From the UHGV virus genome UHGV-1773340: a stretch of DNA of 13,707 bases. The stretch is one strand, 5' to 3'. How positions within the stretch are numbered: the stretch's first letter is position 1; the number at the start of each line of letters is the position of its first letter. This DNA is from a virus. The position numbers were made by a program, and so were the translations under genes. The notes under the pieces were generated by a model. The model was not told the DNA's origin. It ran no database searches and saw only the letters and a program-made list of their open reading frames with translations. Shown here in pieces: positions 1-13,707 of this stretch.

Positions 1-114
1 GGGATGGCGGCGGCACAGGGGGCCAAGACGCTAAGCGAAGCTAAAACTTCGGATCCGAGTGTGTTGTCAGCTATGGCGAATGCAGTTAGTGGTCAGGGTG
101 GGCAATCACAATGA
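1..114 (+). CDS. 3' end of an upstream gene that runs off the window start; probably portal protein C-terminus (5'-truncated here)
   Basis: Frame 1 is open from position 1 to the TGA at 112..114 (…GMAAAQGAKTLSEAKTSDPSVLSAMANAVSGQGGQSQ*). The stop overlaps the ATG of the next gene (ATGA at 111..114). The portal call is inferred only from its position upstream of scaffold and capsid. Confidence 0.45.
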   Translation, partial: GMAAAQGAKTLSEAKTSDPSVLSAMANAVSGQGGQSQ

Positions 115-407
115 CAGATTACGAAGACGATCAACTGAAAGAAGAAAACGCCCGTAAGCAACGTGACATGGCGCAGCGTGAAATTGATGACATTCGCTTT
201 GTCATGAGCAGTGAACAGGGACGTCGCGTTGTCTGGTCGGTGCTGGAGAAAGGCCGTGTGTTTTCCGCTATCTCACCGATGGACGCTATGGCAATGGCAT
301 TTAATGAGGGGCAACGCAATCTGGCGCTGGAACTGTTTCAGCGCGTTATGGCGCATTGCCCTGAACAGTATTTGAAGATGGCCAAAGAGGCCAGTGAACA
401 GGAGTGA
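111..407 (+). CDS. small 98-aa phage protein of unknown function, between the upstream (portal?) gene and the scaffolding gene
   Basis: Complete ORF with an ATG start overlapping the upstream stop. Charged, helical-looking composition. From memory it resembles the small Bbp19-like proteins of BPP-1-type phages; this is unverified. Confidence 0.6.
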   Translation: MTDYEDDQLKEENARKQRDMAQREIDDIRFVMSSEQGRRVVWSVLEKGRVFSAISPMDAMAMAFNEGQRNLALELFQRVMAHCPEQYLKMAKEASEQE

Positions 408-409
408 TC

Positions 410-1105
410 ATGAATTTATTTGAGCGTTTGCTGTATCGCCGTCTTTGCAATGAGCAACAAGTCGATGGTGGGGCAGCTCCGGCTGCGTCAGAACCGTCAG
501 CGCATGCAGGTGATAACCCTGCTCCAGCTGGTGATCCATCACAACAGGAAGGTGATAAGCCACAACCTGTTGTTGATGTCGATAAACCTGATGATGAAAA
601 AAAATCTGAAAACGATAAACAGGGTGAAAAAAAGGACGGCGATAAACCAGATGGTGCGCCGGAGAAGTACGAATTTCATGCTGCCGAAGGCGTAGAGCTG
701 GATACAGAAGCGTTGAAGGAATTCGAGCCGGTGGCGCGAGAACTTAACCTGACCAACGAGCAAGCGCAAAAGCTGGTTGATGCTTATCCGAAGATTCTGG
801 CAGGTGTTCAGCAGCGCCAGGCAGAAGCCTGGCAGAAAACAACCGAGCAGTGGGCTGCGGATGTAAAAGCTGACAAAGAAATCGGTGGCGACAAGTTGAT
901 TTCTAACCTTAGCGTCGCACAGCGTGCGCTTGACCAGTTCGGGACACCTGAACTCAAAGAATATCTGAACACCACCGGGCTGGGTAATCACCCTGATCTG
1001 GTCAAAACGTTCGTGAAAATCGGAAAGGCGATGTCTGAAGATGGCATGGTCACCGGTGGTAATGAAGGCCAGCGTAGTGCGGCCGAAGTGCTCTATGGCA
1101 AATAA
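410..1105 (+). CDS. putative scaffolding protein (231 aa)
   Basis: Sits immediately upstream of the major capsid gene. AGGAG at 400..404 lies 5 nt before the ATG at 410; the track's GTG at 404 is less likely. The N-terminal third is acidic, Pro/Lys/Asp/Glu-rich and low-complexity, followed by helical Gln/Ala/Glu-rich segments, as is typical of scaffolding proteins. Confidence 0.6.
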   Translation: MNLFERLLYRRLCNEQQVDGGAAPAASEPSAHAGDNPAPAGDPSQQEGDKPQPVVDVDKPDDEKKSENDKQGEKKDGDKPDGAPEKYEFHAAEGVELDTEALKEFEPVARELNLTNEQAQKLVDAYPKILAGVQQRQAEAWQKTTEQWAADVKADKEIGGDKLISNLSVAQRALDQFGTPELKEYLNTTGLGNHPDLVKTFVKIGKAMSEDGMVTGGNEGQRSAAEVLYGK

Positions 1106-1119
1106 GAGAGGAAATGACA

Positions 1120-2106
1120 ATGGCTGTTAAAGGCTTAACTGCGCTAACGCTGGCTGACTGGGGTAAGCGCGTCGATCCAAACGGGAAAGTCGATAAGATT
1201 ATCGAGCTTCTCGGTCAAACAAACCCGATCCTTCAGGATATGCCTTTTGTCGAAGGGAACCTTCCTACCGGACACCGAACCACCATTCGTTCTGGTTTAC
1301 CTTCAGCTACCTGGCGTTTGCTGAACTATGGCGTACAGCCAAGCAAATCAACCACAGTGCAGGTCACCGATTCCGTTGGCATGTTGGAAACCTATGCTGA
1401 AGTCGATAAGTCACTGGCTGATCTGAACGGTAATACCGCCGAATTCCGCCTGTCTGAAGACCGCGCATTTATTGAAGCGATGAATCAGCAGATGGCGCAG
1501 ACGTTGTTTTATGGTGATTCCAGCGTTAACCCTCAGCAGTTTATGGGATTGTCCTCCCGCTATTCCAGCCTGTCTGCGGGTAATGCTCAGAACATTATTG
1601 ATGCTGGTGGCACGGGTACAGATAACACCTCAATCTGGTTAGTGGTGTGGGGCGAAAACACCGTGCATGGCATCTTCCCGAAAGGGCAGAAGGCTGGCAT
1701 CCAGATGGAAGATAAAGGCCAGGTGACACTGGAAGATGCGAATGGCGGCAAGTACGAAGGCTACCGTACCCATTACAAATGGGACAACGGACTTGCTCTG
1801 CGTGACTGGCGTTATGTTGTTCGCATTGCAAACATCGATGTCAGCAATCTTTCAGAACCTTCCTCTGCCGCAAATATTGCGAAGTTGATGGTTAAAGCAC
1901 TGCATCGCATTCCAAACCGTGGCATGGGCCGCCCGGTGTTCTACATGAACCGCACTGTAGGCCAGGCTCTTGATCTACAGTCTCTGGAGAAAACATCTCT
2001 GGCTATCAGCGTAAAAGAGACTGAAGGCGAGTGGTGGACTTCATTCCGTGGTGTACCAATCCGTGAAACTGACGCACTTCTGGAAACAGAAGCCCGCGTG
2101 GTGTAA
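1120..2106 (+). CDS. major capsid protein (HK97-fold type), about 328 aa
   Basis: About 330 aa, directly after the scaffold gene, with the size and composition of podovirus major capsid proteins. GAGAGGA at 1106..1112 is better spaced for the ATG at 1120 than for the track's ATG at 1114, which remains an alternative. A stem-loop follows the stop. Confidence 0.75.
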   Translation: MAVKGLTALTLADWGKRVDPNGKVDKIIELLGQTNPILQDMPFVEGNLPTGHRTTIRSGLPSATWRLLNYGVQPSKSTTVQVTDSVGMLETYAEVDKSLADLNGNTAEFRLSEDRAFIEAMNQQMAQTLFYGDSSVNPQQFMGLSSRYSSLSAGNAQNIIDAGGTGTDNTSIWLVVWGENTVHGIFPKGQKAGIQMEDKGQVTLEDANGGKYEGYRTHYKWDNGLALRDWRYVVRIANIDVSNLSEPSSAANIAKLMVKALHRIPNRGMGRPVFYMNRTVGQALDLQSLEKTSLAISVKETEGEWWTSFRGVPIRETDALLETEARVV

Positions 2107-2122
2107 CGCCTGTTATTAACCT

Positions 2123-2142
2123 GTGGGCCGCAACAGGCCCAC
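2123..2142 (+). promoter_or_regulatory. perfect 7-bp stem-loop (GTGGGCC-GCAACA-GGCCCAC) in the capsid/next-gene intergenic region; possible mRNA processing or stability element or attenuator
   Basis: Inverted repeat read directly: 2123..2129 pairs with 2136..2142 around a 6-nt loop. There is no U-tract after it, so it is not a canonical intrinsic terminator. Confidence 0.4.
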
Positions 2143-2157
2143 TAATGGAGAAAGAAG

Positions 2158-2595
2158 ATGATCACCGACAAACTGTTGATGTTCTCCGAAGCACAGGCGG
2201 TAACTGATACCGCGGCTTCTACTGACGTAATCGATCTCGGTCCAATTGACGGAAACCGTCGCGATATCGGTGTGGGTTACCCGCTTGAGTTTTGGGTGCT
2301 GGTTAACGAAGCCGCCACGGCAAGTGGTGAGGCAACTGTAAACATCCAGTTGCAGACGAGTGAGAATAACAGCTCATGGTCCACTATTTATGATAGTGGC
2401 GCACTGGCAAAGGCTACCCTGACAGCAGGTAAACGAGTTGTTTCTGCAAAGGTGCCTGCCGGTGTTCAGCGATATCTGCGTGTTAACTACTCCGTCGCAA
2501 CTGGCCCACTAACGGCCGGCAAATTCACTGCGGGTATCAGTCTGGATGTTGATGCCAATACGCCGTACCCGATCCGCTCAAAAGTAACTGGTTAA
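2158..2595 (+). CDS. 145-aa protein; candidate capsid decoration/cement protein
   Basis: GGAG at 2147..2150 lies 7 nt before the ATG at 2158. It is immediately downstream of the capsid gene and has a Thr/Ser/Ala/Gly/Val-rich, beta-type composition. The functional call is by position and size only. Confidence 0.65.
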   Translation: MITDKLLMFSEAQAVTDTAASTDVIDLGPIDGNRRDIGVGYPLEFWVLVNEAATASGEATVNIQLQTSENNSSWSTIYDSGALAKATLTAGKRVVSAKVPAGVQRYLRVNYSVATGPLTAGKFTAGISLDVDANTPYPIRSKVTG

Positions 2596-2605
2596 GGTGA
2601 TATCG

Positions 2606-2941
2606 ATGTCAGGTAAGAAACCAAGATACCGCGTTCTGCGCCTCTCTCATATCCATAACACACTGTGGCAGGAGGGGGCAGAAATCGAATACGAAGGTGA
2701 GCCTGGTAGCGCACTGGAACCTGTTAACGATGCAGCCAGACAGGCAAAAGCAAAGGTAGCAGGAAAGGTGTCTATGGCAGCAACCAGCACCAAAATCATC
2801 AACGATGTGTCAGATGATGGTGAACTGGATAAGCTCCGTGAAGAGTACGAATTGCTCTTTAACGAGAAGCCACACCATAACGCTAAAGCCGAAACGATCC
2901 GCGAGAAGATCGCAGATAAGCGTAAAGAACTGGGCGTGTAA
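2606..2941 (+). CDS. hypothetical highly charged small virion-module protein (111 aa)
   Basis: ATG at 2606 is preceded by AAGGTGA at 2594..2600; the track's GTG at 2597 is less likely. Lys/Glu/Arg-rich. Followed by a terminator-like hairpin. Confidence 0.55.
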   Translation: MSGKKPRYRVLRLSHIHNTLWQEGAEIEYEGEPGSALEPVNDAARQAKAKVAGKVSMAATSTKIINDVSDDGELDKLREEYELLFNEKPHHNAKAETIREKIADKRKELGV

Positions 2942-2957
2942 GCCTCGCGAATCCGAC

Positions 2958-2980
2958 AAGGGGCTTCGGCCCCTTTATTG
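2958..2980 (+). terminator. candidate rho-independent terminator or attenuator (AAGGGGC-TTCG-GCCCCTT followed by TATTG)
   Basis: A 7-bp stem with five G:C pairs and a TTCG tetraloop (2958..2975), followed by a T-rich tail to 2980. It starts 16 nt after the TAA at 2939..2941. Confidence 0.5.
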
Positions 2981-2991
2981 CAGGAGTGTAT

Positions 2992-3315
2992 ATGGAACTC
3001 GTAAACCTCAAAACCGGCACTGACAGCTACCAGGATGAGAGCGGAGAAACCAGAACTCGCGATGAATACCCGTGGGGGCTGTGCATCACTCTTAATAACG
3101 ACACATTGAATAAGCTGAAGGCGCAACCTCAGGGCGTCGGAACAGAAGTGATGATAACTGCAAAGGCTGTTATTCGAGGCCTGTCTGCCAGAGAAACTGA
3201 CGATGGTGTTAATCGCAGCGCCGATCTGCAGATCACTGATATGGCGATCGCTCCTGTTTCCGGGGATGTAGAAAAATCAGCGGCTGAAACTCTGTACGGT
3301 AACGGAGGTGAGTGA
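2992..3315 (+). CDS. hypothetical 107-aa protein; its C-terminus shares the SAAE-x-LYG motif with the scaffolding protein
   Basis: AGGAG at 2982..2986 lies 5 nt before the ATG at 2992; the track's GTG at 2986 is less likely. The stop TGA at 3313..3315 overlaps the next start. Confidence 0.6.
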   Translation: MELVNLKTGTDSYQDESGETRTRDEYPWGLCITLNNDTLNKLKAQPQGVGTEVMITAKAVIRGLSARETDDGVNRSADLQITDMAIAPVSGDVEKSAAETLYGNGGE

Positions 3316-3920
3316 TGGCCTCTGTAGTAGAGATCTGTAATCGTGCGCTGTCCAATATTGGCAATAGCCGCAGCATTAACAGCCTGACGGAAGCCAGCAA
3401 GGAAGCGGGGGAATGTTCGCTGCACTTTGAGGCCTGCCGTGATGCTGTGCTTTCTGATTTTGACTGGAACTTTGCTACCAAACGCGTGGCGCTTGCAGAT
3501 ACGAGCAATCCACCGCCTGACTGGGAATATGCGTACCAGTACCCGTCCGATTGTCTGCGCATTACTGAAATTATGCTTCCTGGTGTACGCAATCCAACAG
3601 CAGCAATGCGCGTTCAGTACGAAGTTGGTGCAGACACCAACGGAACAGGAAAATTGATCTATACAGACCAGCCGCAGGCATGGCTCAAGTATGTCTCTCG
3701 CGTTTCAGATGTGAACATGTTTGATGCCATTTTTATGGAGGCGCTGGCCTGGCGTCTTGCGGCAGCCATTAACATGGCGCTGACTGGGAATGCGGATCTC
3801 GGTACATTTGCTCTCAATATGTACAATCGCGTGATTCTTAGTGCTGGTTCGCATAGCCAGAATGAATCACAGGAACCACAGCCACCGGTTGACGAGTTTA
3901 CCATTGCGAGGTTGTCCTGA
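3315..3920 (+). CDS. tail tubular protein A-like (T7 gp11-like adaptor/gatekeeper), 201 aa
   Basis: About 200 aa, immediately upstream of an ~820-aa protein, matching the gp11/gp12 pairing. GGAGGTG at 3304..3310 precedes the ATG at 3315 (TGATG overlap). The N-terminal pattern recalls T7 gp11 from memory. Confidence 0.6.
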   Translation: MASVVEICNRALSNIGNSRSINSLTEASKEAGECSLHFEACRDAVLSDFDWNFATKRVALADTSNPPPDWEYAYQYPSDCLRITEIMLPGVRNPTAAMRVQYEVGADTNGTGKLIYTDQPQAWLKYVSRVSDVNMFDAIFMEALAWRLAAAINMALTGNADLGTFALNMYNRVILSAGSHSQNESQEPQPPVDEFTIARLS

Positions 3921-6391
3921 TGGCTATCAGTTGGATCCAGCCCAGCTTTGCTGGTGGTGAGATTGGACCGTCGTTGTACGGTCGTATCGACATGGCGAAG
4001 TACCAGGTGGCATTGCGCAAGTGCGATAACTTTATCGTGCGGCAGTATGGCGGCGTTGAGAATCGACCTGGTACGCGTTTTGTCGGTGCCGCCAAATACC
4101 CAAATCGGAAATGCCGCCTGATCCCGTTCCAGTTCTCGACGGTTCAGACTTATGCTCTGGAGTTCGGACACCAGTACATGCGCGTTATCAAAGATGGTGC
4201 GTTGGTGCTGAACAGCAGCAATGTTATTTATGAAATTGCCACGCCATATACTGAAGCCGATCTGTTCCGAATTAAATTCACGCAAAGCGCAGACGTGCTT
4301 ACGCTTGTTCATCCGGCATACCCGCCGAAAGAGTTGCGTCGCTATGCGCATGACAACTGGCAACTGGTTGATGTGGTAACGAAGAACGGACCATTTGAAG
4401 ATATCAATATTGACGAGTCAGTGACGGTTTATGCCAGCGCCAGCACCGGGACAATTACGTTAACGGCAAGCGCCTCTATTTTTGGCGCGGAGCAGGTAGG
4501 CAAATTGTTCTATCTGGAACAGCCTGCAGTGGATTCAGTGCCGGTATGGGAAACCAGTAAGAGTACGTCGATTGGCGATATTCGCCGTGCAGACAGTAAC
4601 TACTATCGCGCCGTTACAGCAGGCAAAACAGGTACTTTGCGCCCTTCGCATACAGAAGGCACATCATGGGATGGCTGGGGCGGATCCGGTGATGATGATA
4701 CTGGTATTGAGTGGGAATATCTGCACAGTGGTTTTGGCATTGCCCGTATCACTGCTGCAAATGGAACTACTGCAACTGCCGAGGTGATTTCCTATATCCC
4801 TTCGCAGGTCGTTGGCGAGGATAATGCCAGCTATAAATGGGCTAAATATGCCTGGAACAGTGTTAATGGTTATCCTGGCACTGTTGTTTATTATCAACAA
4901 CGTCTTTACTTCGCCGCATCGACTGCGTTCCCTCAGACTATCTGGGCCAGCCGTACCGGGGATTATAAGGATTTTGGCAAAAGCAATCCTACGCAGGATG
5001 ACGACAGAATTATCTACACCTATGCCGGGCGTCAGGTTAATGAGATCCGCCACCTGATTGATGTTGGTTCGCTGGTGGCGCTGACTTCCGGAGGTGAGTA
5101 CGTCATCACCGGCGACCAGAACAAAGTATTAACCCCATCATCATTTGCATTCAGCTCTCAGGGATCAAATGGCTCGAGCAATGTCCCACCAATTGCCGTG
5201 GCGAATATTGCTCTGTTCGTCCAGGAGAAAGGCAGTGTTGTCCGTGATCTGGCCTACTCATTCGATGTTGACGGCTATCAGGGGAACGACCTGACCATCC
5301 TTGCTAATCATCTTTTTCAGAAGCACAGCATCGTTGACTGGTGCTTCTCTATTGTCCCTTACTCCAGCGCCTTCTGCATTCGTGATGACGGTAAATTACT
5401 GGTGATGACCTATTTGCGTGATCAACAGGTTTTTGCATGGGCACCACAGTCCAGTACCGGAAAATATGAAAGCACATGCAGTATCAGCGAAGGAAATGAA
5501 GATGCGGTGTATTTCGTCGTTAACCGAACCGTTAACGGGCAAACAGTGAGATACATCGAGCGGCTGTCCAGCCGTTTATTTACCAGCGATGAAGATGCTT
5601 TCTTTGTTGATTCTGGCCTTAGCTATGATGGAAGAAATACGTCTGACAGAACGATGACCATCACTGGTGGTTCTGGTGAATGGGATTACCGTGCGGAATA
5701 TACAATCAGTGTTTCTGGTGGTGCGTACTTCACCAGTAGTGATGTCGGCGCGCAACTACAGTTCCCTTATACCGGAACTGTTCCTGATACTGGCGATGAA
5801 GTGTCAAAAGAATTACGTTGCGACATTATTTCTGTAACCAGCAATACCGCTGTAGTGGTTCGTGCTAACAGGAACGTCCCGCCATCCCTCAGGAGTGTGG
5901 CCACCACGAACTGGCAGATGGCGCGCCGGACATTTGGAGGCCTGTCTCATCTTGAAGGCCAGGCCGTAAACATTCTCTCTGATGCGAACGTGGAACCACA
6001 GAAAGTGGTTTCCGGAGGTGCCGTCACGCTGGAATCTCCGGGGGCTGTAGTGCACATCGGCCTGCCAATAACTGCTGAATTCGAAACACTGGATATCAAC
6101 ATTAACGGACAGGAAACGCTGCTGGATAAAAAACAGGTAACCCCCTCCGTTACTCTGGTTGTGAATGCCAGTCGCGGCATCTGGGCGACTACGCCCGGCG
6201 GTAAATGGTACGAATATCCACAGCGTGAATTCGAGTTCTACGATGATCCTGTTGATGATGCTACCGGAAAAGTAGAAGTGAAACTGGACAGTAACTGGGG
6301 CAAAAACGGACGTGTAAAAATCCGTCAGCTTGACCCGTTGCCGCTGTCTGTTCTTGCCGTTATTCCTCGCCTTACTGTTGGGGGATTCTGA
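3920..6391 (+). CDS. tail tubular protein B-like (T7 gp12-like nozzle), 823 aa
   Basis: 823 aa. The N-terminus (MAISWIQPSFAGGEIGPSLYGR…ENRPGTRF) resembles the remembered T7 gp12 N-terminus (…KNLKGGISQQP…LQKRPP…). Gene order and TGATG coupling to the previous gene support the call. Confidence 0.65.
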   Translation: MAISWIQPSFAGGEIGPSLYGRIDMAKYQVALRKCDNFIVRQYGGVENRPGTRFVGAAKYPNRKCRLIPFQFSTVQTYALEFGHQYMRVIKDGALVLNSSNVIYEIATPYTEADLFRIKFTQSADVLTLVHPAYPPKELRRYAHDNWQLVDVVTKNGPFEDINIDESVTVYASASTGTITLTASASIFGAEQVGKLFYLEQPAVDSVPVWETSKSTSIGDIRRADSNYYRAVTAGKTGTLRPSHTEGTSWDGWGGSGDDDTGIEWEYLHSGFGIARITAANGTTATAEVISYIPSQVVGEDNASYKWAKYAWNSVNGYPGTVVYYQQRLYFAASTAFPQTIWASRTGDYKDFGKSNPTQDDDRIIYTYAGRQVNEIRHLIDVGSLVALTSGGEYVITGDQNKVLTPSSFAFSSQGSNGSSNVPPIAVANIALFVQEKGSVVRDLAYSFDVDGYQGNDLTILANHLFQKHSIVDWCFSIVPYSSAFCIRDDGKLLVMTYLRDQQVFAWAPQSSTGKYESTCSISEGNEDAVYFVVNRTVNGQTVRYIERLSSRLFTSDEDAFFVDSGLSYDGRNTSDRTMTITGGSGEWDYRAEYTISVSGGAYFTSSDVGAQLQFPYTGTVPDTGDEVSKELRCDIISVTSNTAVVVRANRNVPPSLRSVATTNWQMARRTFGGLSHLEGQAVNILSDANVEPQKVVSGGAVTLESPGAVVHIGLPITAEFETLDININGQETLLDKKQVTPSVTLVVNASRGIWATTPGGKWYEYPQREFEFYDDPVDDATGKVEVKLDSNWGKNGRVKIRQLDPLPLSVLAVIPRLTVGGF

Positions 6392-6855
6392 TGATCGATG
6401 TTCGAATTATTCCCGCCACCGAAGAGCATCTTCAGATGATTTTGCCGGATGTTCGTCAGGCTGATATTGACGAACTGTATGCGGTATCACTGATGACTAC
6501 CGAAGATGCGCTGCGTGTTGGTCTGCGTACTGCGACTATGGCCTGGTCAGGATTTGCGAACGGAGAACTGGTAACCATGTTTGGCGTATCTCCGGCGTCA
6601 ATGATCGGTGGCAATGGTACGCCCTGGCTGGTCGGAACCAGCCGTATTGAAAAATATCAGAAGACATTTCTTCGCCACTGCCGCCCGGTATTGCAGCAGA
6701 TGCTGGCAGTTTATCCGCGCCTGGAAAACTATGTCGACGAGCGAAACCATGTTGCCAAAGCATGGCTGCACTGGCTTGGATTCAGGCTTGAAGAAGCCGC
6801 GCCTTATGGTGCTCTTGGTCTTAATTTCCACAGATTTCACATGGAGAGAAAATAA
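6391..6855 (+). CDS. internal virion protein at the gp13 position, 154 aa; possible GNAT-like fold
   Basis: TGATG overlap with the previous gene. The C-terminal segment …ERNHVAKAWLHWLGFRLEE resembles the N-x-x-A-x-x-L-x-x-x-GF motif of acetyltransferase-type folds. This is a weak, motif-level observation. Confidence 0.55.
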   Translation: MIDVRIIPATEEHLQMILPDVRQADIDELYAVSLMTTEDALRVGLRTATMAWSGFANGELVTMFGVSPASMIGGNGTPWLVGTSRIEKYQKTFLRHCRPVLQQMLAVYPRLENYVDERNHVAKAWLHWLGFRLEEAAPYGALGLNFHRFHMERK

Positions 6856-7400
6856 TGTGCGATCCGGTTATTGCTGGTGGCGCAATGCTCGCCATGAGTG
6901 GCATTCAGGCATACACCCAGTACCAACAGGGAAAGTATGCCTCGAAGGTTGCAGAAGCGAACGCAGATATAGCCACAGCTCAGGCAAATGATGCAATAAA
7001 CAGAGGTAACGCTGAAGCTGAGCAACGGCGCAGAGAGACCCGACAGCGGCTTGGTACACAGGCGGCGACAATGGGGGCTACCGGCGCTGATTTATCTACA
7101 GGTAACGCGCTGGATATATTTGGCGACACTGCCCAGTTTGGCGCTCTTGATTCTCTGACGACGGTGAATAACGCGCAACGCGAGGCTTACGGTTATCAGG
7201 TTCAGGCTGCCAACTATAAAGCAGAAGCCAGTTCAGTCCGTAAACAGGGGAATGTGGGAGCAGCAACAACATTGCTCACTGCGCCTCTGAAGGCATACGG
7301 TGCGTACCAGATGTTTGGTGGGACGTGGAGTCCGTTTACTCAAAGCACCCCTGCGCCAATCGGGGCAGCAGCAGGAACCAGATTACCCGGAGGATTATAA
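6855..7400 (+). CDS. internal virion protein B-like (T7 gp14-like), 181 aa
   Basis: The N-terminus [20 protein letters not shown]… recalls the T7 gp14 N-terminus (MC…I…SGAQA…). The protein is Ala/Gly/Gln-rich, about the same size as gp14, and in the gp14 position. GGAGAG at 6843..6848 precedes the start; TAATG overlap. Confidence 0.6.
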
Positions 7401-10216
7401 TGCCAGTCGTACCAACAGTATCCGGCCGTCAGGTTCAGAGCCGTGGAGTTCAGTCAGCAGGCTTGCAGACGTTTTCTCAGCCAGGTATTGGTGATGCTTT
7501 TGTTCGGGCAGGGACAGAGGCAATTGATGTTTTTGGTCAGGCAAAACAGCGTGCCAATATCGCTCTGGCTCAGGAGGCATCTCTTAACCTCAGTCAGATA
7601 AGCAGTGATCTGCTGAATAATCCTGAAACAGGATTGCTTAACCTGAAAGGGAAAAATGCTATTGGAAAAGGTCAGGAGTATACGCAGCAGTTTGATGCTC
7701 AGGTCGAACAACTGGCTATGTCGCTGCCGGATGAACAGGCTCGTAATGCTTTCATGCAGCAGGCGCAGCAGCAGCGCATTCAGTTCACTACGCAGGCAGG
7801 GCGGCACGAGATAGGGCAAATAAATGCCTACGAAGAAGGCCAGTTTCAGGCTACGCTGCTGAACAATGGTAAAAATTCCGCAGCATTGTATGGCGACAAC
7901 GCCGCATACGTATTGGCTAATAAGCAAACTTTCCAGCAAATTGAGGATTACGGCATTGCACATGGCTGGAGTGACGAGCAAATCCAGGCCAAGAAAATCG
8001 AGTTTAAAGAGAAGGTTGCTGATGCTGCATTGTCCCAGTGGTCAGCAAATAACGCGATCGGCTTCATTCAGAGCAACGGTGAGCTGAGCGACACGGTAGC
8101 CGGTTCACGGCGGGCTACTGTTAACCCTTATGGTGGTGAGCCATCATCTACGAAAGGAATGGTTACCCAGGGGAACATTAACTTATTCAACCGACCATCT
8201 GTAAAAAACGAAGATGGTACTATCAGCACGGTAAGAACTATTTCCATAGGCACTGATGCAGGTGAAGTCCTGATACCAACGGTCAGTGATGACGGTAAAT
8301 TACTTTCAGATGATGAAGCAATCGCGCTATATGAAAAAACAGGAAAGCACCTTGGAATATTTGATAATCCTGATGATGCGACTGCATATGCTGAAAAGTT
8401 GCACGAGCAGCAAGATCAGTATTATGTGAAAGGTGATAGCGGCGATGCCAGGGGTATCCGCAACAATAACCCAGGAAACCTTGAAGCCAGCTCATCAAAC
8501 CCATGGATTGGGCAGACTGGTAGTGATGGCCGGTTTGCAAAATTCGAGACTCCGGAGCATGGGATCCGCGCGCTGGGCCGCAACCTCATATCCTACCAGC
8601 GACAGGGGATTGATACCGTTGGCGAGATCATTAACCGTTGGGCGCCGCCGTCTGACAATAACGACACGGCTGCATACATCAAAGCAGTTTGCGCGCAGTT
8701 AGGCGTAACGGCAAACCAGCCTCTTGACGCTTCCAATCCTGACACGCTGCAGGCACTCTGTGCCGCCATCATTAAGCATGAAAACGGCAGTCAGCCATAC
8801 AGCCAGGATCAGTTGTCCACCGGCGTCAGCGCAGCTCTTGGGCTGTCACAGTTGCCAACCAGCAATAAACGCTACACCGGCAATGCAGCATTCGACGCCG
8901 CCACGCCGGAAGCGCAGGCCACTTTTCTGCGCCAGGCTGATCAGATCCGCCGGCAGCAGCAGGCCGAATACAGAACGGTTATCGATAGCCAGGTTCGCGA
9001 CGCCACCGCGGCTTACATGCGAGGTGTTGAGTTCCCAAACCCGCCAGGGGAAGCTGATTTTATGGCTGCCTACGGCGTGCGGGAGGGAAACCAGCGTTAC
9101 ACCGAATTCAGGAATACGCAGATTGCCGGGCAGTACATTGGCTCATTCCGCAACATGCCGACAAGCAGCATTACAGCATATGTTGAGCAATTACGCCCGG
9201 ATACTGGTGAGACAGGGGAGGGTTATGCGGCACGAGCCGCTCTTTATGACAACGTTGTGTCGGCTGCAAGTCAGGTGATAAAGCAGCGACAGGCTGATCC
9301 TGTACAGTTCTCTCTTGCCGCCGGACAGGCAAAGCCTATCGACATGAGCAATAAGGATAACTTTGGACAGAGCGTTGCCTTGCGTGCTGCTCAGGTCAGT
9401 GACCTTGCTAAGTCATATGGCACTCCACTGACGTTCTTTTCCAAAGACGAGGCCAATCAGATCGGTGTTTTCTTTCGTGATGCGCCCGTTTCCCAACAGG
9501 CAGCATATCTCGATACCATCAGGCAGAGCACTGGTGGTGGGCAGGTGTATATGTCAGCACTACAGCAGATCAGTGCCAACGCTCCATCTGCTGCCGTTGC
9601 CGGGATACTGATGGATAAGCCTGGTGGTATTTTGGCAGAAAAAAACTGGTTTAATCCGGATGTTTCCGTGTCTCCTGAAACCGCTGCGCAGACAATTCTT
9701 GCTGGCGCGGCGGCTCGTAAAGGTACTGATGATGCGAAAGGTATTCCGATGCCTAAAGATGCTGATCTTCGCCTTGAGTTTTCTGACATGGTGAAGGATG
9801 CATTTGCTGGTGACGCTCAGGGGGCATCAATGGCATACGAGATCGCAAAGGATTATTACGCTGGTGTGATGGCGAAAAAAGGCGTGGTATCAGGCGAAAT
9901 TGACAATGATGTCTGGAAACAGGCTGTTAACGTAGCTACAGGTGGCGTGCATGACTATAACGGAATGGGGAATGTCCTTTTGCCGTGGGGAATGTCTGCA
10001 GAGCAATTCGATAAGCAGGTTAATCAGGCTTGGAATGAACAAGTTGTCGGCTCCGGGATAAAAACACCGCCTGGTCAGTATGGTTTGCAAAGTTACGGCG
10101 ATAGTCAGTACCTGGTGAAACTTGGTACTGGTTATCTGCTGAAAGATGATGGTTCTCCCGTTGTTCTTAATCTGACACAGAAGCGTCAGAGATTCTCCGG
10201 AGATATTCCGCAATGA
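7400..10216 (+). CDS. large internal virion/ejection protein (938 aa) at the gp15 position, with a central conserved-looking module
   Basis: GGAGGA at 7389..7394 lies 5 nt before the ATG at 7400, which overlaps the upstream TAA. The track's start at 7325 would overlap the upstream gene by 75 nt and is rejected. A central segment (nt about 8440..8830: …[45 protein letters not shown]…[13 protein letters not shown]…) looks like a globular, possibly enzymatic domain. Confidence 0.7.
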
Positions 10217-12015
10217 GTTACTTTGGCCTTAATCCAGTAAACCAGAATCAGCAGCTTGACGAAGCAGCATCAAATCCAGCTGGCTTTAACAGCGATGTTG
10301 GTTTTTTCGACAATGCTGTAGGAGCGGCATTGTCTGGTTTGTACTCCGGGCTGGTGGCAAAGCCAGATCAGTTGCTATGGGCAGGGATGGATAAAATCGT
10401 ATCCCCGATCGCTCAGTTTGTTAACGAAAACACCTCGCTCAATGACACTTCAGTTTCATACATTGCTGAGCAGAGAAAACTAGCAGAGCAGCAGGTTAAG
10501 CGGCTGACGCCTGATGCCGCGACAACCGGAACCGCCGGGCAGGTTCTTTATGGGTTGTTCGATATGGGCGGGCAGGCTGTTGTCGGTACAACGCTCGGTG
10601 GTCCTGTCGGAGGTGCAGCGGCGGTAACTTCGCTACAGGGTTTTTCTGAGTTTGAACGGCTGACAGCACAGGGGGTTGATTTCAGGACGGCGCAGGAAGC
10701 GGGATTAGTGCAGGGCATTACTGCTGGTGCCGGAACACTGATCCCTATGAGCCTCGGGTTACGTGCTGGTGGTGCGCTGGCGGAAGGTGTGGCGGCTCAG
10801 CTTGCGCGGACGGGTGAGAGTTCAGTGCGACGCGCCGCAGCAACAGCAGTACGTGCAACGCCAGATATTGCCTATGCCGCAGGTACAAATATTGCGTTCG
10901 GTATGGCACAGCGTGGGCTTACTGCAAAAACGCTTCGTGATGGTGGCTATAGCGAAATGGCTAACCAGTATGATGTGTTGGATCGACAGGCAATTGCTAT
11001 TGATGCTGTTCTTGGGGTGGCGTTTGGTGGTGTCGGCAGATTTATTAACTCTCGCGGCGAGTCTACAAACGCACCAAATTTTTCACCAGTTGATATCGAT
11101 GCTGCACTGGCGGCGAATGCCGCTCATCATGCTGAAATTGATATTGCGCCCGGCGTGCCGATCAACGTGCTTTCGCGCAATTCTCACATTCAGGCTCTGC
11201 GAAAAGCTATGTCTGATGTTAGCCAGGGGAGATCTGTAGACGTTGCCAGCATTGTTGAGTCTGCATCTTTCAGTGAAATTCCTGGGCGCAAGAGTCTGCT
11301 GTCTCAGGCAGTTAATGAGGCTCTGTCATCTGTAGATGATGGAGTAACGGCGCGCGCTATAGAAAATCGGTTGCTTGAAGAACAGGCCGCGCAGCTTTTG
11401 CCGCGTGGAGATAGACAGGTTTACCAGTCTGAAATCGCTAATAGCCAACGAATTATTGAAAATCTCAATGAACAGCGTGCACAAATTCTTGCAGAAGATC
11501 CAACCGGTAGCGGTAAAGCTTTGTCTCGTGCTCGATCAGATAAACAGGCCAGACTTCGCGATATTGATCAACGAATCCGGCAGGCACAAGAACGCCTGGA
11601 ATTTTCCCGTAACGCGTTGGCACCGCACGAGCCTGGCGGTCAGTTTTTTGAAGCTCGAGCAGAACTGGCTCGGAGACAGCAGGCAGAAAGTGAACTTAAT
11701 GCTCAGGCTGTTTCATTCTATAAAACAGCAGAGGTCAGGACGCCAGACGAAGTAGCTCCTTTTGAGCTTGATAAAATATTGCAACAGGCAGAACAAAAAA
11801 TGATGGCGGATCAGGCGGGAGATATTGATCTGCGCATAGCTGAAGACTCGCTGCTTGAATCACCTGACATGATAATCACCGTGCTGGATGATGATGGTAA
11901 TCCACAATCGCGCAGCGCGCGTGAAGTACTGGATGAAGCGAACAGGGAAAGTGAGCAGGCAATACAGGATTCCAGCCTGTTTGATGTCGCTGTGGCGTGT
12001 TTCTTGAGAGGTTAA
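10213..12015 (+). CDS. internal virion/ejection protein (600 aa) with Gly/Ala-rich hydrophobic segments and a charged helical C-terminal half
   Basis: ATGA overlap with the previous gene. Residues about 105..280 contain several GxxxG/A-rich hydrophobic stretches (for example [19 protein letters not shown] and [31 protein letters not shown]). The C-terminal half is Arg/Glu/Gln-rich and coiled-coil-like. Confidence 0.7.
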
Positions 12016-12020
12016 ATTAA

Positions 12021-13707
12021 ATGAGACAGGAATGTATACAAGCGGTCCAGCAGGCGGCGCAGCGCACGTTAACGGCGCGAGAAATACAGAACATTGAAGA
12101 CCGCATTTATCGAAATATGCGCTCCATTGCTCGTGATGACCCGATGTCGTGGAGACAACTTTCCGAATCAGAGCGGCTATATCGTGCAGCACAATTGGCA
12201 TCTGAAGAATTACAGCGAGAAGCGACATTAAAGAAACGTCGTGTGGCCCTCACTATAGCCGCACGTCAGAGATTGGATAAATTTATCAATAGCTATCAAG
12301 GGGCTGATGGGAAACTTGGCGCTCTTAACCGTACTATTGCTTTTAATGCAGACGGTAAATCGAATTTCCTCTCTGTTGAATCCAGAACAAAAGCCACTCG
12401 TGATTATGCATTGAGTCAATTGCAGGAGGCATTTGAAGCAGTTGATCCTCGCTTTTTTGGCCTGTTTGAAGATGAATCGGGCGTGCGTGACTTGGTATAT
12501 GAAATGCGAGGGAAAAATACTGGCAATGCTAAAGCAAGAAAAGGTGCTAAGGCGTGGAGAGAAGTGACAGATCTACTGCGCCGCCGGTTTAATGATGCTG
12601 GTGGGGACATTGGCTATCTCGAAAACTGGGGGATCCCTCAACATCATTCTATGGAAAAGGTTGGGGCGGTATCAAAAGATAAATGGGTTAGCGATGTTAT
12701 AGGTAAGCTGGATCGCAAATATTATACCCGAGCCGATGGACAACTGATGAACGATGACGAGTTGTCTGCATTTCTTGGAGAGGCTTATAACACGATCGCT
12801 ACTGGTGGGCTGAATAAGCTTACTGATACCGGAATGCGAATTTCCGGCGCACGTGCTAACCGTGGTAATGCATCACGACAGATACATTTCAAAGATGCAG
12901 ATTCCTATCTGCAATATCAGCAACTTTATGGCGATCGCTCTCTATGGGAAATCATGGTCGGTCACCTGGAAGGTATCAGTAAAGATATTGCACTGGTGGA
13001 AACATATGGCCCAAACCCCGATCATGTTTTCCGCTCTCTTCTTGATCAGGTGAAGGCAGAAACGGCAACAGCTAACCCGAGTAAAACCGGTAAAGTCGAG
13101 CGGCTGGCGAACAACACAGAGAATCTGTACAACTTTATTTCCGGAAAGACACAGCCTGTAGCGAATCCGCACATCGCGCGATGGTCTGACAATATCCGCA
13201 ACTGGCTGGTTGCCAGCAGACTCGGATCCGCGTTGCTATCATCGTTCTCTGATCTTGGAACCATGTATCTGTCTGCGAAGGTTACCAACCTTCCAATGAA
13301 TCAGTTATTCCGCAACCAGCTTGAAGCTATGGACCCAACGAACCGTACAGAACTTGCGCGGGCGCGCCGCGCTGGTCTGGCGATGGAATCTTTACTTGGC
13401 AGCGTTAACCGCTGGGCGATGGATAATATGGGGCCGTCAGTGTCTCGTTGGGCGGCAACGGCGGTAATGCGTGCCAGTGGGCTTACAGCATGGTCAGATG
13501 CGCACAAGCGCGCCTATGGCGTAACCATGATGGGAAGCCTGGGAGAAGTAGTGTCACGGACAGCAGACCTTCGTAGCCTCGATGACTCTGATTTTCGTAT
13601 CCTGAAAAGCAAAGGGATTACTGACACAGACTGGAGAGTATGGAAGCTGGCGCAACAGGAGGACTGGGGGAACGGTAATAATACGATGCTGACACCGGAA
13701 AGCATTA
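12021..13707 (+). CDS. large internal virion protein, 3'-truncated (more than 562 aa within the window); gp16 position
   Basis: Not in the supplied ORF track because it has no stop in the window. I translated frame 3 from the ATG at 12021 to the window end and found no stop codon (MRQECIQAVQQAAQRTLTAREIQNIEDRIYRNMRSIARDDPMSWRQL…TMLTPESI). GAGAGG at 12006..12011 lies 9 nt upstream. Same strand and operon as the preceding genes. Confidence 0.7.
   Translation, partial: MRQECIQAVQQAAQRTLTAREIQNIEDRIYRNMRSIARDDPMSWRQLSESERLYRAAQLASEELQREATLKKRRVALTIAARQRLDKFINSYQGADGKLGALNRTIAFNADGKSNFLSVESRTKATRDYALSQLQEAFEAVDPRFFGLFEDESGVRDLVYEMRGKNTGNAKARKGAKAWREVTDLLRRRFNDAGGDIGYLENWGIPQHHSMEKVGAVSKDKWVSDVIGKLDRKYYTRADGQLMNDDELSAFLGEAYNTIATGGLNKLTDTGMRISGARANRGNASRQIHFKDADSYLQYQQLYGDRSLWEIMVGHLEGISKDIALVETYGPNPDHVFRSLLDQVKAETATANPSKTGKVERLANNTENLYNFISGKTQPVANPHIARWSDNIRNWLVASRLGSALLSSFSDLGTMYLSAKVTNLPMNQLFRNQLEAMDPTNRTELARARRAGLAMESLLGSVNRWAMDNMGPSVSRWAATAVMRASGLTAWSDAHKRAYGVTMMGSLGEVVSRTADLRSLDDSDFRILKSKGITDTDWRVWKLAQQEDWGNGNNTMLTPESI

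Follow-up and report, generated by a model that had tools for sequence, protein, structure and literature searches.

A virion gene block of a phiV10-like Uetakevirus encoding a probable T7-like tail channel and internal ejection proteins

The window, a 13,707-nucleotide stretch of the virus genome UHGV-1773340, places tail and internal-protein genes in a T7-like order behind head genes that resemble those of the short-tailed phage BPP-1, and the question that it raises is whether this combination marks a mosaic or distinct lineage, as an earlier note on the sequence had proposed, or an arrangement that is already known. We take the window, with high probability, to be the block of late (virion) genes of a phiV10-like Uetakevirus (epsilon15 group), with a T7-like tail channel and internal ejection proteins. 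The Uetakevirus phages (phiV10/epsilon15) are temperate short-tailed phages of Escherichia coli and Salmonella. Gene coordinates were taken from an open reading frame list with translations, families from Pfam and PHROG, and homologues from BLASTP searches (Table 1). The genes are real rather than chance open reading frames, because strong matches to families or homologues exist for every one of them.

Table 1. Features of the window, with coordinates, strand and the principal evidence for each.
Feature	Coordinates	Strand	Evidence
Portal gene, C-terminal end	1..111	+	36 visible residues 97% identical to phiV10 p07
98-aa Bbp19-like protein (extra small gene between portal and scaffold genes)	111..407	+	Pfam PF25181 Phage_Bbp19, 62.8 bits
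233-aa protein in scaffold position	404..1105	+	phrog_458 "protease"; annotated "protease" in databases
Major capsid protein, 330 aa, epsilon15 gp7/BPP-1 Bbp17 type	1114..2106	+	Pfam PF20911 GP7, 497 bits
145-aa Bbp16-like capsid cement protein	2158..2595	+	Pfam PF21190 Bbp16, 165 bits; 46% identical to BPP-1 Bbp16
114-aa epsilon15 gp9-like protein	2597..2941	+	phrog_590, function unknown
109-aa epsilon15 gp10-like capsid decoration ("staple") protein	2986..3315	+	Pfam PF21628 Gp10-like, 173.5 bits
Predicted tail adaptor (tail tubular protein A, T7 gp11-type)	3312..3920	+	PDB sequence and fold matches
Predicted tail nozzle (tail tubular protein B, T7 gp12-type), 823 aa	3920..6391	+	PDB matches
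Predicted IVP-A, 154 aa, T7 gp13-like (acetyltransferase-like assembly factor)	6391..6855	+	phrog_308, E 1.8e-62
IVP-B, 181 aa, T7 gp14 family (predicted outer-membrane part of ejection channel)	6855..7400	+	Pfam PF24072 T7_gp14
First large internal/ejection protein, 938 aa, epsilon15 gp15-like, IVP-C position	7400..10216	+	phrog_992
SPN1S-type recombinant patch (1.1 kb) inside the 938-aa gene	~8030..9160	+	Switch in nucleotide identity
107-aa insert (aa 243-349) with conserved ~85-aa module	8126..8446	+	Absent from phiV10 p18 and epsilon15 gp15
Second large internal protein, 600 aa, epsilon15 gp16-like	10213..12015	+	phrog_1145; 32% identical to epsilon15 gp16
Third large internal protein, epsilon15 gp17-like	12021..beyond 13707	+	phrog_684 "virion structural protein"

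Nearest genomes and head genes

Together with the gene identities and homologies of Table 1, we observe near-identity of the window to known phages: phiV10, PAS61, ZX5, and phiv142-3 share 96–97% nucleotide identity with it across 97–100% of its 13.7-kb length, and Tyrion and SPN1S share 81% and 78%, respectively. Its 13 genes are colinear with those of recognised Uetakevirus members, a comparison that covers the window rather than the whole genome, and apart from the patched 938-aa gene the encoded proteins are 93.5–99.7% identical to their phiV10-type counterparts. The proposal of a mosaic or distinct, unrecognised lineage is thus refuted, because the window is nearly identical, gene for gene, to four named phages.

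In the complete genomes of the nearest relatives, phiV10 and PAS61, lambda-P-like replication genes and RecT-type recombination genes accompany those for an integrase and a repressor, and both phages are temperate; an RNA polymerase gene was not found in the annotated complete genomes of these two 96–97% identical relatives. Membership of the Autographiviridae, the T7-like phages proper, is rejected because the close relatives are temperate and lack a single-subunit phage RNA polymerase. The most likely source of the window is a prophage within an enterobacterial genome: an identical 938-aa protein with the same flanking genes occurs on a 149-kb NCBI assembly contig, and a related region is present in 505 of 5426 complete E. 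coli genomes. A promoter and terminator scan of the window returned sites no more numerous than in shuffled controls, and NCBIfam gave zero matches among all proteins tested.

All four families that define a BPP-1/epsilon15-type head (GP7, Bbp16, Gp10-like, and Phage_Bbp19) are matched in the window, which bears out the BPP-1-like character that had been read from the gene arrangement; the extra small gene ahead of the scaffold and the three small genes between capsid and tail tubular A are likewise present, with the sizes given before. The Bbp19-like protein is 99% identical to phiV10 p08 and 38% to BPP-1 Bbp19; the major capsid protein is 99.7% identical to phiV10 p10, 62% to Bbp17, and 43% to epsilon15 gp7; the gp9-like protein is 97% identical to phiV10 p12 and 39% to epsilon15 gp9; and the gp10-like protein is 43% identical to epsilon15 gp10 and 49% to BPP-1 Bbp20. 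The 233-aa protein (93.5% identity to phiV10 p09, 46% to BPP-1 Bbp18) gave no domain in a Pfam search; a scaffold role is suggested by its place ahead of the capsid gene and by an N-terminal half that is acidic and of low complexity. The description of the head as non-T7 holds for the scaffold, capsid, and cement genes, but not for the portal, which belongs to the T7 gp8 family: Pfam PF12236 (Head-tail_con) is matched by full-length phiV10 p07, BPP-1 Bbp21, and T7 gp8 alike.

These head families bear on the possibility of a recent mosaic, in which a T7-type tail and ejection module would have been recombined onto an unrelated BPP-1-type head in this phage or its immediate ancestors. The capsid, cement, and scaffold Pfam families do differ from those of T7, the capsid and terminase of epsilon15 group with those of siphoviruses, which has been ascribed to interfamily transfer (PMC4819975), and DNA similarity to epsilon15 and SPN1S is continuous from exactly 3304, the adaptor gene start. 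However, the 3304 junction is a swap between Uetakevirus alleles rather than between T7-like and BPP-1-like sequence, the portal, encoded upstream of the capsid genes, is itself of the T7 gp8 family, and the identical combination and order recur in epsilon15, SPN1S, Tyrion, TL-2011b, and the distant BPP-1. Any head–tail transfer would be ancient, because similarity to T7 is detectable by profiles or fold only; a recent event is therefore highly improbable. A local head–tail mosaic is also contradicted by the occurrence of the same combination throughout the epsilon15 homology group, BPP-1 included (PMC4819975), which makes it old and lineage-wide. The juxtaposition of T7-like tail and ejection genes with a BPP-1-like capsid is already described rather than new: T7-like synteny of tail and internal-protein genes in the epsilon15 group, including BPP-1, has been reported (Hardies et al., 2016, PMC4819975; Swanson et al., 2022, PMC8954989), and tubular tail protein A, tubular tail protein B, and IVP-A to IVP-D have been assigned across that group (PMC4819975).

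Tail channel and internal proteins

The order of T7 genes 11 to 16 that had been noticed from 3312/3315 onward on the + strand is confirmed (201/202, 823, 154, 181, 938, 600, and >562 aa), and from portal to IVP-D the gene order is colinear with T7 genes 8–16. BLASTP of all window proteins against T7 gp8–16 returned nothing at E < 0.3. Profiles of 2–5 sequences (window, epsilon15, BPP-1, and TL-2011b) were searched against nine T7 proteins; the best-ranked hit was the expected partner in the case of IVP-A, of the nozzle, and of the last large protein, with E-values that are non-significant at a realistic database size.

The adaptor gene encodes 202 aa from a GTG at 3312, or 201 aa from an ATG at 3315, the latter as annotated in phiV10. 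As modelled by AF2 (pLDDT 87), the 202-aa protein has a T7 gp11-type adaptor fold: Foldseek matches the model to the Carin-1 connector 8ck1_E (TM 0.84), the LME-1 adaptor (TM 0.66), and T7 gp11 (7box, 7ey7, and 6r21; E 4e-6 to 6e-5, TM 0.55–0.62, probability 1.0), as well as to KP32 tail tubular protein A (5mu4) and the PhiM1 and P-SCSP1u adaptors. By sequence, PDB searches match the protein to 8ck1_E at E 2.9e-26 and to 9efk, the LME-1 adaptor, at E 3.9e-5. Pfam PF17212 (Tube) has zero matches to the 202-aa protein up to E 10; T7 gp11 scores 231 bits. The adaptor model bears in addition on a P22-type organisation, whereby the ejection proteins would be packaged but dispersed rather than forming a T7-like core stack, and the large proteins would be "small" as in P22. 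The gp15-/gp16-like proteins of epsilon15 have been classed as "small", and epsilon15 clusters with P22 in gp14 and gp16 trees (Swanson et al., PMC8954989), yet the same review describes a T7-like core stack in epsilon15, and the adaptor model fits P22 gp4 far more poorly than T7 gp11 in Foldseek (E 1.1 vs. 4e-6); we regard a P22-type organisation as extremely improbable.

For the preferred T7-like channel, the next component is the 823-aa protein, which by sequence comparison is a close relative of the solved hexameric nozzle of Carin-1 (8ck1_A, E 1.5e-216, residues 2–822) and a predicted nozzle itself; it also matches the LME-1 nozzle 9efk_M (E 1.5e-15). It is unmatched by Pfam PF25675 (Phage_nozzle) up to E 10, and BLASTP to T7 gp12 is also empty; in a three-sequence nozzle profile, T7 gp12 residues 351–426 ranked top, non-significantly. 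Published HMM–HMM comparison of epsilon15 gp12 with T7 gp12 gives E < 1e-10 (PMC4819975), and the LME-1 adaptor and nozzle proteins structurally resemble the T7 tail complex according to the LME-1 authors (PMC12407071).

The 154-aa protein is assigned, from its family match and its syntenic slot between the nozzle and gp14 genes, to the T7 gp13 (IVP-A) family: phrog_308 is common to it and to T7 gp13 (E 1.1e-42 for the latter). It scores 13.6 bits against Pfam PF11090 (Phage_T7_Gp13), under the cut-off of 25; the epsilon15 database record labels gp13 as GNAT-like. The 181-aa protein matches PF24072 with 31.0 bits (cut-off 27) over residues 1–160 of 181, its copies in E. coli prophages are named "virion core protein, T7 gp14 family" in RefSeq, and both it and T7 gp14 begin with MC and a hydrophobic stretch. 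A Kyte–Doolittle membrane-segment scan was uninformative, with T7 gp14 showing no segment at the same threshold either, and PDB sequence searches were empty for the 154-, 181-, and 600-aa proteins and the visible 562 aa.

The 938-aa protein bears a predicted cell-wall hydrolase domain of lysozyme fold: residues 350–483 match the N-terminus of Gp29 (9vvp, E 1e-39) and the endolysin of phage Enc34 (7q47, E 1e-18), whose domain type is the PHA02564 lysozyme-fold family (PMC8943055). Similarity to T7 gp15 was not found in BLASTP, small-profile, or PDB searches with the 938- and 600-aa proteins, and the IVP-C (T7 gp15) assignment is made by position, as it is in PMC4819975 and PMC8954989. The N-terminal ~390 aa of the 600-aa protein are conserved across 1316 cluster representatives; a profile of its family (54 sequences) found no relative in the PDB. 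The third large protein, of which 562 aa are visible before the window ends (824–826 aa in relatives), is 98.6% identical to phiV10 p20 and 26% to epsilon15 gp17. We propose it as a candidate counterpart of IVP-D/T7 gp16. A four-sequence profile places T7 gp16 residues 1092–1133 top of the nine T7 proteins, a weak and non-significant match (E 2.5, Z=1e5), and epsilon15 gp17 has been linked to an extended IVP-D family by stepwise HMM–HMM matching (PMC4819975). The N-terminal SLT lytic transglycosylase domain of T7 gp16 is absent from the visible 562 aa, with zero Pfam or PDB matches; homologues are all at least 87% identical among the matches listed, too shallow a set for a deep profile.

By analogy with T7, the gp11-type adaptor would form a dodecameric ring beneath the portal, and the gp12-type nozzle, as a hexamer, would complete the short-tail channel. 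The large proteins and the gp14-like protein may form a core stacked on the portal inside the head, as in T7 and in published epsilon15 imaging, with the 154-aa gp13-like protein as a putative assembly factor; a review that notes the gene synteny calls the epsilon15 core stack "similar to phage T7" (PMC8954989). After tailspikes bind O-antigen, the core proteins would exit via the portal–adaptor–nozzle channel and form a temporary tube through the outer membrane, periplasm, and inner membrane, with the lysozyme-fold domain of the 938-aa protein cutting peptidoglycan locally. The stoichiometries, core stack, ejection order, and protein-to-layer assignment are what we infer from the T7 and epsilon15 analogies.

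A different location has been suggested for two of these proteins, since an epsilon15 genetic study assigned gp15 and gp17 to the external apparatus of the tail and not to the internal core; as cited in PMC12391199, Guichard et al. (2013) put gp4, gp20, gp15, and gp17/16 in a tail packaging/injection device. The 938- and ~824-aa proteins, as counterparts of epsilon15 gp15 and gp17, would then be parts of an external tail tube rather than capsid-internal. However, clear homologues of the adaptor and nozzle, from which the external tube is made in all solved T7-type tails, are already encoded, and the large genes come behind the gp13- and gp14-like genes, which is the position of IVPs; a virion-borne lysozyme domain suits an ejected protein, and an internal core stack is described in epsilon15 (PMC8954989). 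The large proteins would also lengthen the tube after ejection, which may account for the genetic data. We consider an external location very unlikely and retain that of internal ejection proteins.

A recombinant patch and an 85-residue module in the first large protein

One feature of the window is absent from the compared records, namely the SPN1S-type patch inside the 938-aa gene. Within it, nucleotide identity is 91–100% to SPN1S and 70–86% to phiV10 and PAS61; the flanks show the opposite. The 107-aa insert that it carries is 100% identical to SPN1S at the amino acid level, and the protein is a net 101 aa longer than phiV10 p18 (837 aa). The internal proteins were said to differ from those of T7 in number and size, which they do; remodelling of the ejection machinery is also real, but on a finer scale than had been suggested, involving domains within the first large ejection protein.

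The module in the insert adjoins the lysozyme-fold domain and is very strongly conserved (consensus GNIDLxxRPVVxNxDGSISTVRS...LIPTVSDDG...HLGIF...LHxQQ). Its 234 homologues are mostly stand-alone proteins of 100–130 aa, encoded beside portal genes, ahead of a giant polyvalent protein, or adjoining lysozyme or M15 peptidase genes; the module is also found fused with lysozyme or M15 peptidase genes, or inside ejection, tape-measure, and polyvalent proteins. Pfam, NCBIfam, and a PDB fold search are empty for it, and PHROG gives one weak match (phrog_19413, function unknown, E 2e-4). Tentatively, it might be an undescribed mobile accessory domain of virion-packaged, host-delivered phage proteins, possibly acting with cell-wall hydrolases at genome entry, a reading that we hold as possible and somewhat doubtful.

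Significance and comparison with named phages

The main picture is published: phages of the epsilon15 group share the T7 portal, adaptor, nozzle, and internal-protein ensemble (a temporary DNA-delivery tube) with a different capsid/cement set. For annotation there is a correction to make: the names adaptor, nozzle, IVP-A, IVP-B, and ejection protein suit window-type genes better than those in most near-identical records, where they appear as "hypothetical", "head protein", "capsid and scaffold", or "protease". Domain-level exchange in the first ejection protein (SLT vs. lysozyme-fold hydrolase; 85-aa module present or absent) marks where the ejection machine tolerates change, which is relevant to host-range engineering of O157/Salmonella typing and therapeutic phages, and may outweigh the main finding in usefulness.

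The type member epsilon15, for which cryo-EM data exist, and SPN1S have the same gene order as the window from gp4 to gp17. The adaptor and nozzle of epsilon15 are 85% and 88% identical to those of the window, and the gp13-, gp14-, and gp15-like proteins of epsilon15/SPN1S are 62%, 78%, and 53–76% identical; the epsilon15 capsid–cement block is far more divergent (43% for the major capsid protein, then 37%, 39%, and 43%), and the last two large proteins of epsilon15 are 32% and 26% identical to the window's. The epsilon15 record already lists a T7 tail tubular protein A (gp11), a GNAT (gp13), and a lytic enzyme (gp15).

In BPP-1 (Rauchvirus), a Bordetella phage, the order shared with the window runs from the portal through Bbp19, the gene in the scaffold position, the capsid gene (62% aa identity), and the Bbp16 cement gene to the adaptor, nozzle, and gp14-like genes; as in the window, a large protein with a muralytic domain and then a further large internal protein follow. 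BPP-1 differs in having two large internal proteins, of 720 and 2052 aa, and an SLT-type domain, in lacking a gp13-like gene between the nozzle and gp14-like genes, and in the placement of the gp10-like gene bbp20 upstream of bbp19, whereas that of the window sits before the adaptor gene. The closest experimentally solved adaptor and nozzle relatives are those of the Cobetia phage Carin-1 (8CK1) and the Legionella phage LME-1 (9EFK), which differ from the window phage in host and genome, and whose structures leave the internal proteins unresolved (PMC11440229).

T7 genes 8–16 present the portal, scaffold, capsid, adaptor, nozzle, IVP-A, IVP-B, and large internal proteins in the same order as the window; the portal and gp14 fall in the same Pfam families, gp13 in the same PHROG, and the adaptor in the same predicted fold. 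In contrast, capsid and scaffold fall in different Pfam families, the window adds cement genes, and it encodes three large internal proteins vs. two in T7. The wall hydrolase also differs: in the window it is a predicted lysozyme-fold domain of the PHA02564 family, placed midway along the first large protein, and in T7 it is the N-terminal SLT domain of gp16.

Phage identity and gene content

Megablast of the window against 50,697 phage records matched the Escherichia phages PAS61, phiv142-3, ZX5, phiV10, HEMP4, and O157 typing phages 9 and 10 at 96–97% identity over 97–100% of the window, with more distant matches to Enterobacter phage Tyrion (81%), the Salmonella SPN1S group (78%), and epsilon15 (about 75%). 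The matching phages are members of the genus Uetakevirus. In the phiV10 and PAS61 records, these 13 genes follow one another exactly as they do in the window, and the window proteins other than the 938-aa one are 93.5–99.7% identical to those of phiV10. Gene-for-gene near-identity to a well-characterized genus is the outcome that the earlier note had itself named as refuting its proposal of a mosaic or distinct lineage. Elsewhere in their genomes, phiV10 and PAS61 encode an integrase, a repressor, RecT-type recombination genes, and lambda-P-like replication genes; neither genome record contains an RNA polymerase gene.

An identical 938-aa protein is encoded, with the same neighbors, on a 149-kb NCBI assembly contig, and regions related to window 7300–10300 occur in 505 of 5426 complete Escherichia coli genomes, nearly all of them chromosomal. 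Thus, the window is most likely a prophage. RefSeq labels the gp14-like gene in the E. coli prophage copies as 'virion core protein, T7 gp14 family'. Every substantial open reading frame (ORF) with homologues lies on the + strand (ORF list and translations), and the gene coordinates and sizes in the earlier note were all correct.

Genes of the window
Gene	Coordinates	Strand	Size
Portal (last 36 codons)	1-111	+	
98-aa gene	111-407	+	98 aa
Gene in scaffold position	404-1105	+	233 aa
Capsid	1114-2106	+	330 aa
First of three small genes	2158-2595	+	
Second of three small genes	2597-2941	+	
Third of three small genes (gp10-like)	2986-3315	+	
Adaptor (tail tubular protein A)	3312/3315-3920	+	202/201 aa
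Nozzle (tail tubular protein B)	3920-6391	+	823 aa
gp13-like	6391-6855	+	154 aa
gp14-like	6855-7400	+	181 aa
First large protein	7400-10216	+	938 aa
Second large protein	10213-12015	+	600 aa
Third large protein	12021-window end	+	562 aa visible

Relationship to T7 and proposed virion roles

BLASTP of the window proteins against T7 gp8–16 found no similarity, so the relationship to T7 is remote. By sequence, the adaptor matches two solved structures, the Carin-1 connector and the LME-1 adaptor. Its AlphaFold model (pLDDT 87) resembles several T7 gp11 entries (E 4e-6 to 6e-5; TM about 0.6), as well as further T7-type adaptors, KP32 tail tubular protein A among them; P22 gp4 is a poor match. The nozzle matches those of Carin-1 (E 1.5e-216) and LME-1 (E 1.5e-15); according to the LME-1 authors, these proteins resemble those of the T7 tail in structure, with Carin-1 as the closest match (PMC12407071). 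The 154-aa protein shares phrog_308 with T7 gp13, and the 181-aa protein scores above the Pfam T7_gp14 threshold. For the three large proteins, no similarity to T7 gp15 could be demonstrated, and a targeted profile test gave only a weak top match to gp16. The adaptor, nozzle, gp13-like, and gp14-like matches bear out a T7-type order of tail and internal genes; with the portal included (PF12236 takes in the phiV10, BPP-1, and T7 portals), the block as a whole runs colinear with T7 genes 8 to 16. Membership of non-T7 families (GP7, Bbp16, Gp10-like, and Bbp19; Pfam) is confined to the scaffold, capsid, and cement genes, such that the head is non-T7, as had been claimed, in these components but not in its T7-like portal.

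The 233-aa protein is a candidate scaffold protein, judging from where its gene lies, ahead of the capsid gene, and from an N-terminal half that is acidic and of low complexity. Although PHROGs and numerous database records label it 'protease' or 'endoprotease', Pfam detected no protease domain in it. The window encodes two candidate capsid-decoration proteins, a gp10-like 'staple' protein and a Bbp16-like cement protein. The BPP-1 homologue of the former is bbp20 (49% amino acid identity; BPP-1 record 20751–21080), which sits between the portal gene and bbp19, whereas the gp10-like gene of the window precedes the adaptor gene.

By homology, the 202-aa protein would form a ring beneath the portal that bears the tailspikes, the 823-aa protein would be the nozzle, and the gp13-like protein would act as an assembly factor. 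The gp14-like and three large proteins would be packaged inside the head and, after adsorption, ejected to lengthen the channel across the envelope. At residues 350–483, the 938-aa protein contains a domain of the PHA02564 lysozyme-fold family, which matches the phage Enc34 endolysin (7q47) and the N-terminal part of Gp29 (9vvp) (PMC8943055) and would open the peptidoglycan. The matches above show the homologies; the stoichiometry, core stack, and membrane topology we infer by analogy with T7 and from reviews that cover epsilon15 imaging. A published model based on genetics instead assigns epsilon15 gp15 and gp17 to the external tail (PMC12391199); given the clear adaptor and nozzle genes of the window, that placement is less likely for the pre-infection virion.

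The N-terminal region (about 390 aa) of the 600-aa protein represents a large family (1316 cluster representatives), often N-terminal in proteins of 420–2125 aa; its profile found no solved relative. Homologues of epsilon15 gp16 in other podophage groups have already been noted (Hardies et al. 2016, PMC4819975).

Exchange points and an inserted module

Sliding identity plots of the window against its relatives revealed three exchange points. The capsid-to-gp10 block (about 1100–3300) is a different allele from those of epsilon15 and SPN1S, the capsid having 43% amino acid identity to epsilon15 gp7 and 62% to BPP-1 Bbp17. The capsid–cement block (1114–3315) is 37–43% identical to epsilon15 at the amino acid level, whereas the adjoining adaptor and nozzle (3312–6391) are 85–88% identical, and DNA similarity to epsilon15 and SPN1S is continuous from 3304 onward; this points to an exchange of alleles between members of the genus at the head–tail boundary. 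TL-2011b and EC.W1-9 are about 97% identical to the window only up to about 7340–7450, where the gp14-like gene ends, and diverge beyond it. Instead of three large internal proteins, TL-2011b (10111–15842 of its record) encodes only two, of 905 and 1004 aa, the 905-aa protein having an SLT-type motif where the window has the lysozyme-fold domain.

The third lies within the 938-aa gene, where a 1.1-kb recombinant patch (about 8030–9160) has 91–100% nucleotide identity to SPN1S and 70–86% to phiV10/PAS61, whereas its flanks are closer to phiV10/PAS61. Across the full length of the gene, exactly this combination was absent from the 5426 complete E. coli genomes (top full-length match 90%) and from the phages compared window by window (phiV10, PAS61, SPN1S, epsilon15, and TL-2011b).

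The patch contains a 107-aa segment (aa 243–349; 8126–8446) that is missing from phiV10 p18 and epsilon15 gp15. Its core of about 85 aa (consensus GNIDLxxRP...STVRS...IPTVSDDG...HLGIF...LHxQQ) is very conserved across 234 database proteins, mostly stand-alone and of 100–130 aa; it belongs to no Pfam or NCBIfam family and weakly matches one PHROG of unknown function. The AlphaFold model of the insert (pLDDT 80) found no fold match in the PDB; among predicted viral structures, it matched segments of polyvalent proteins, a tape-measure protein, an SLT-domain protein, and small stand-alone proteins. Stand-alone genes lie directly 3' of portal genes, in one example in a phage whose head genes are of the GP7/Bbp16 type; further copies are located upstream of a 5550-aa polyvalent protein, adjoining a lysozyme gene, or beside an M15 peptidase in an ejection-protein-like gene row, and two are fused to M15 peptidases. 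The module also occurs within ejection, tape-measure, and polyvalent proteins. Together, these findings suggest a possible accessory module of virion-delivered proteins.

Comparison with BPP-1 and published assignments

The earlier description of the gene order and its intuition of a BPP-1-like arrangement were right, and its interpretation is partly supported. The block is not a mosaic in the sense proposed: BPP-1 has the order of the window (portal, Bbp19, scaffold-position gene, capsid, Bbp16, adaptor, nozzle, and gp14-like protein), followed first by a large protein that carries a muralytic domain and then by a very large one. Epsilon15, BPP-1, BcepC6B, VP5, and SC1 constitute the 'epsilon15 homology group', for which tubular tail A and B, IVP-A (acetyltransferase-like), IVP-B, IVP-C candidates gp15/gp16, and IVP-D (gp17) were assigned, and the epsilon15 capsid and terminase cluster with those of siphoviruses (Hardies et al. 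2016, PMC4819975). HHpred notes in the epsilon15 GenBank record relate gp11 to T7 tail tubular protein A, gp13 to GNAT acetyltransferase, and gp15 to lytic transglycosylase. A review describes epsilon15 as displaying a T7-like core stack and counts it as one of the phages whose gp14-, gp15-, and gp16-like genes are syntenic (Swanson et al. 2022, PMC8954989). Only the SPN1S-type patch and its uncharacterized module, both outside the claim of the earlier note, go beyond published knowledge; T7-like tail and internal genes with a BPP-1-type head are the picture already published.
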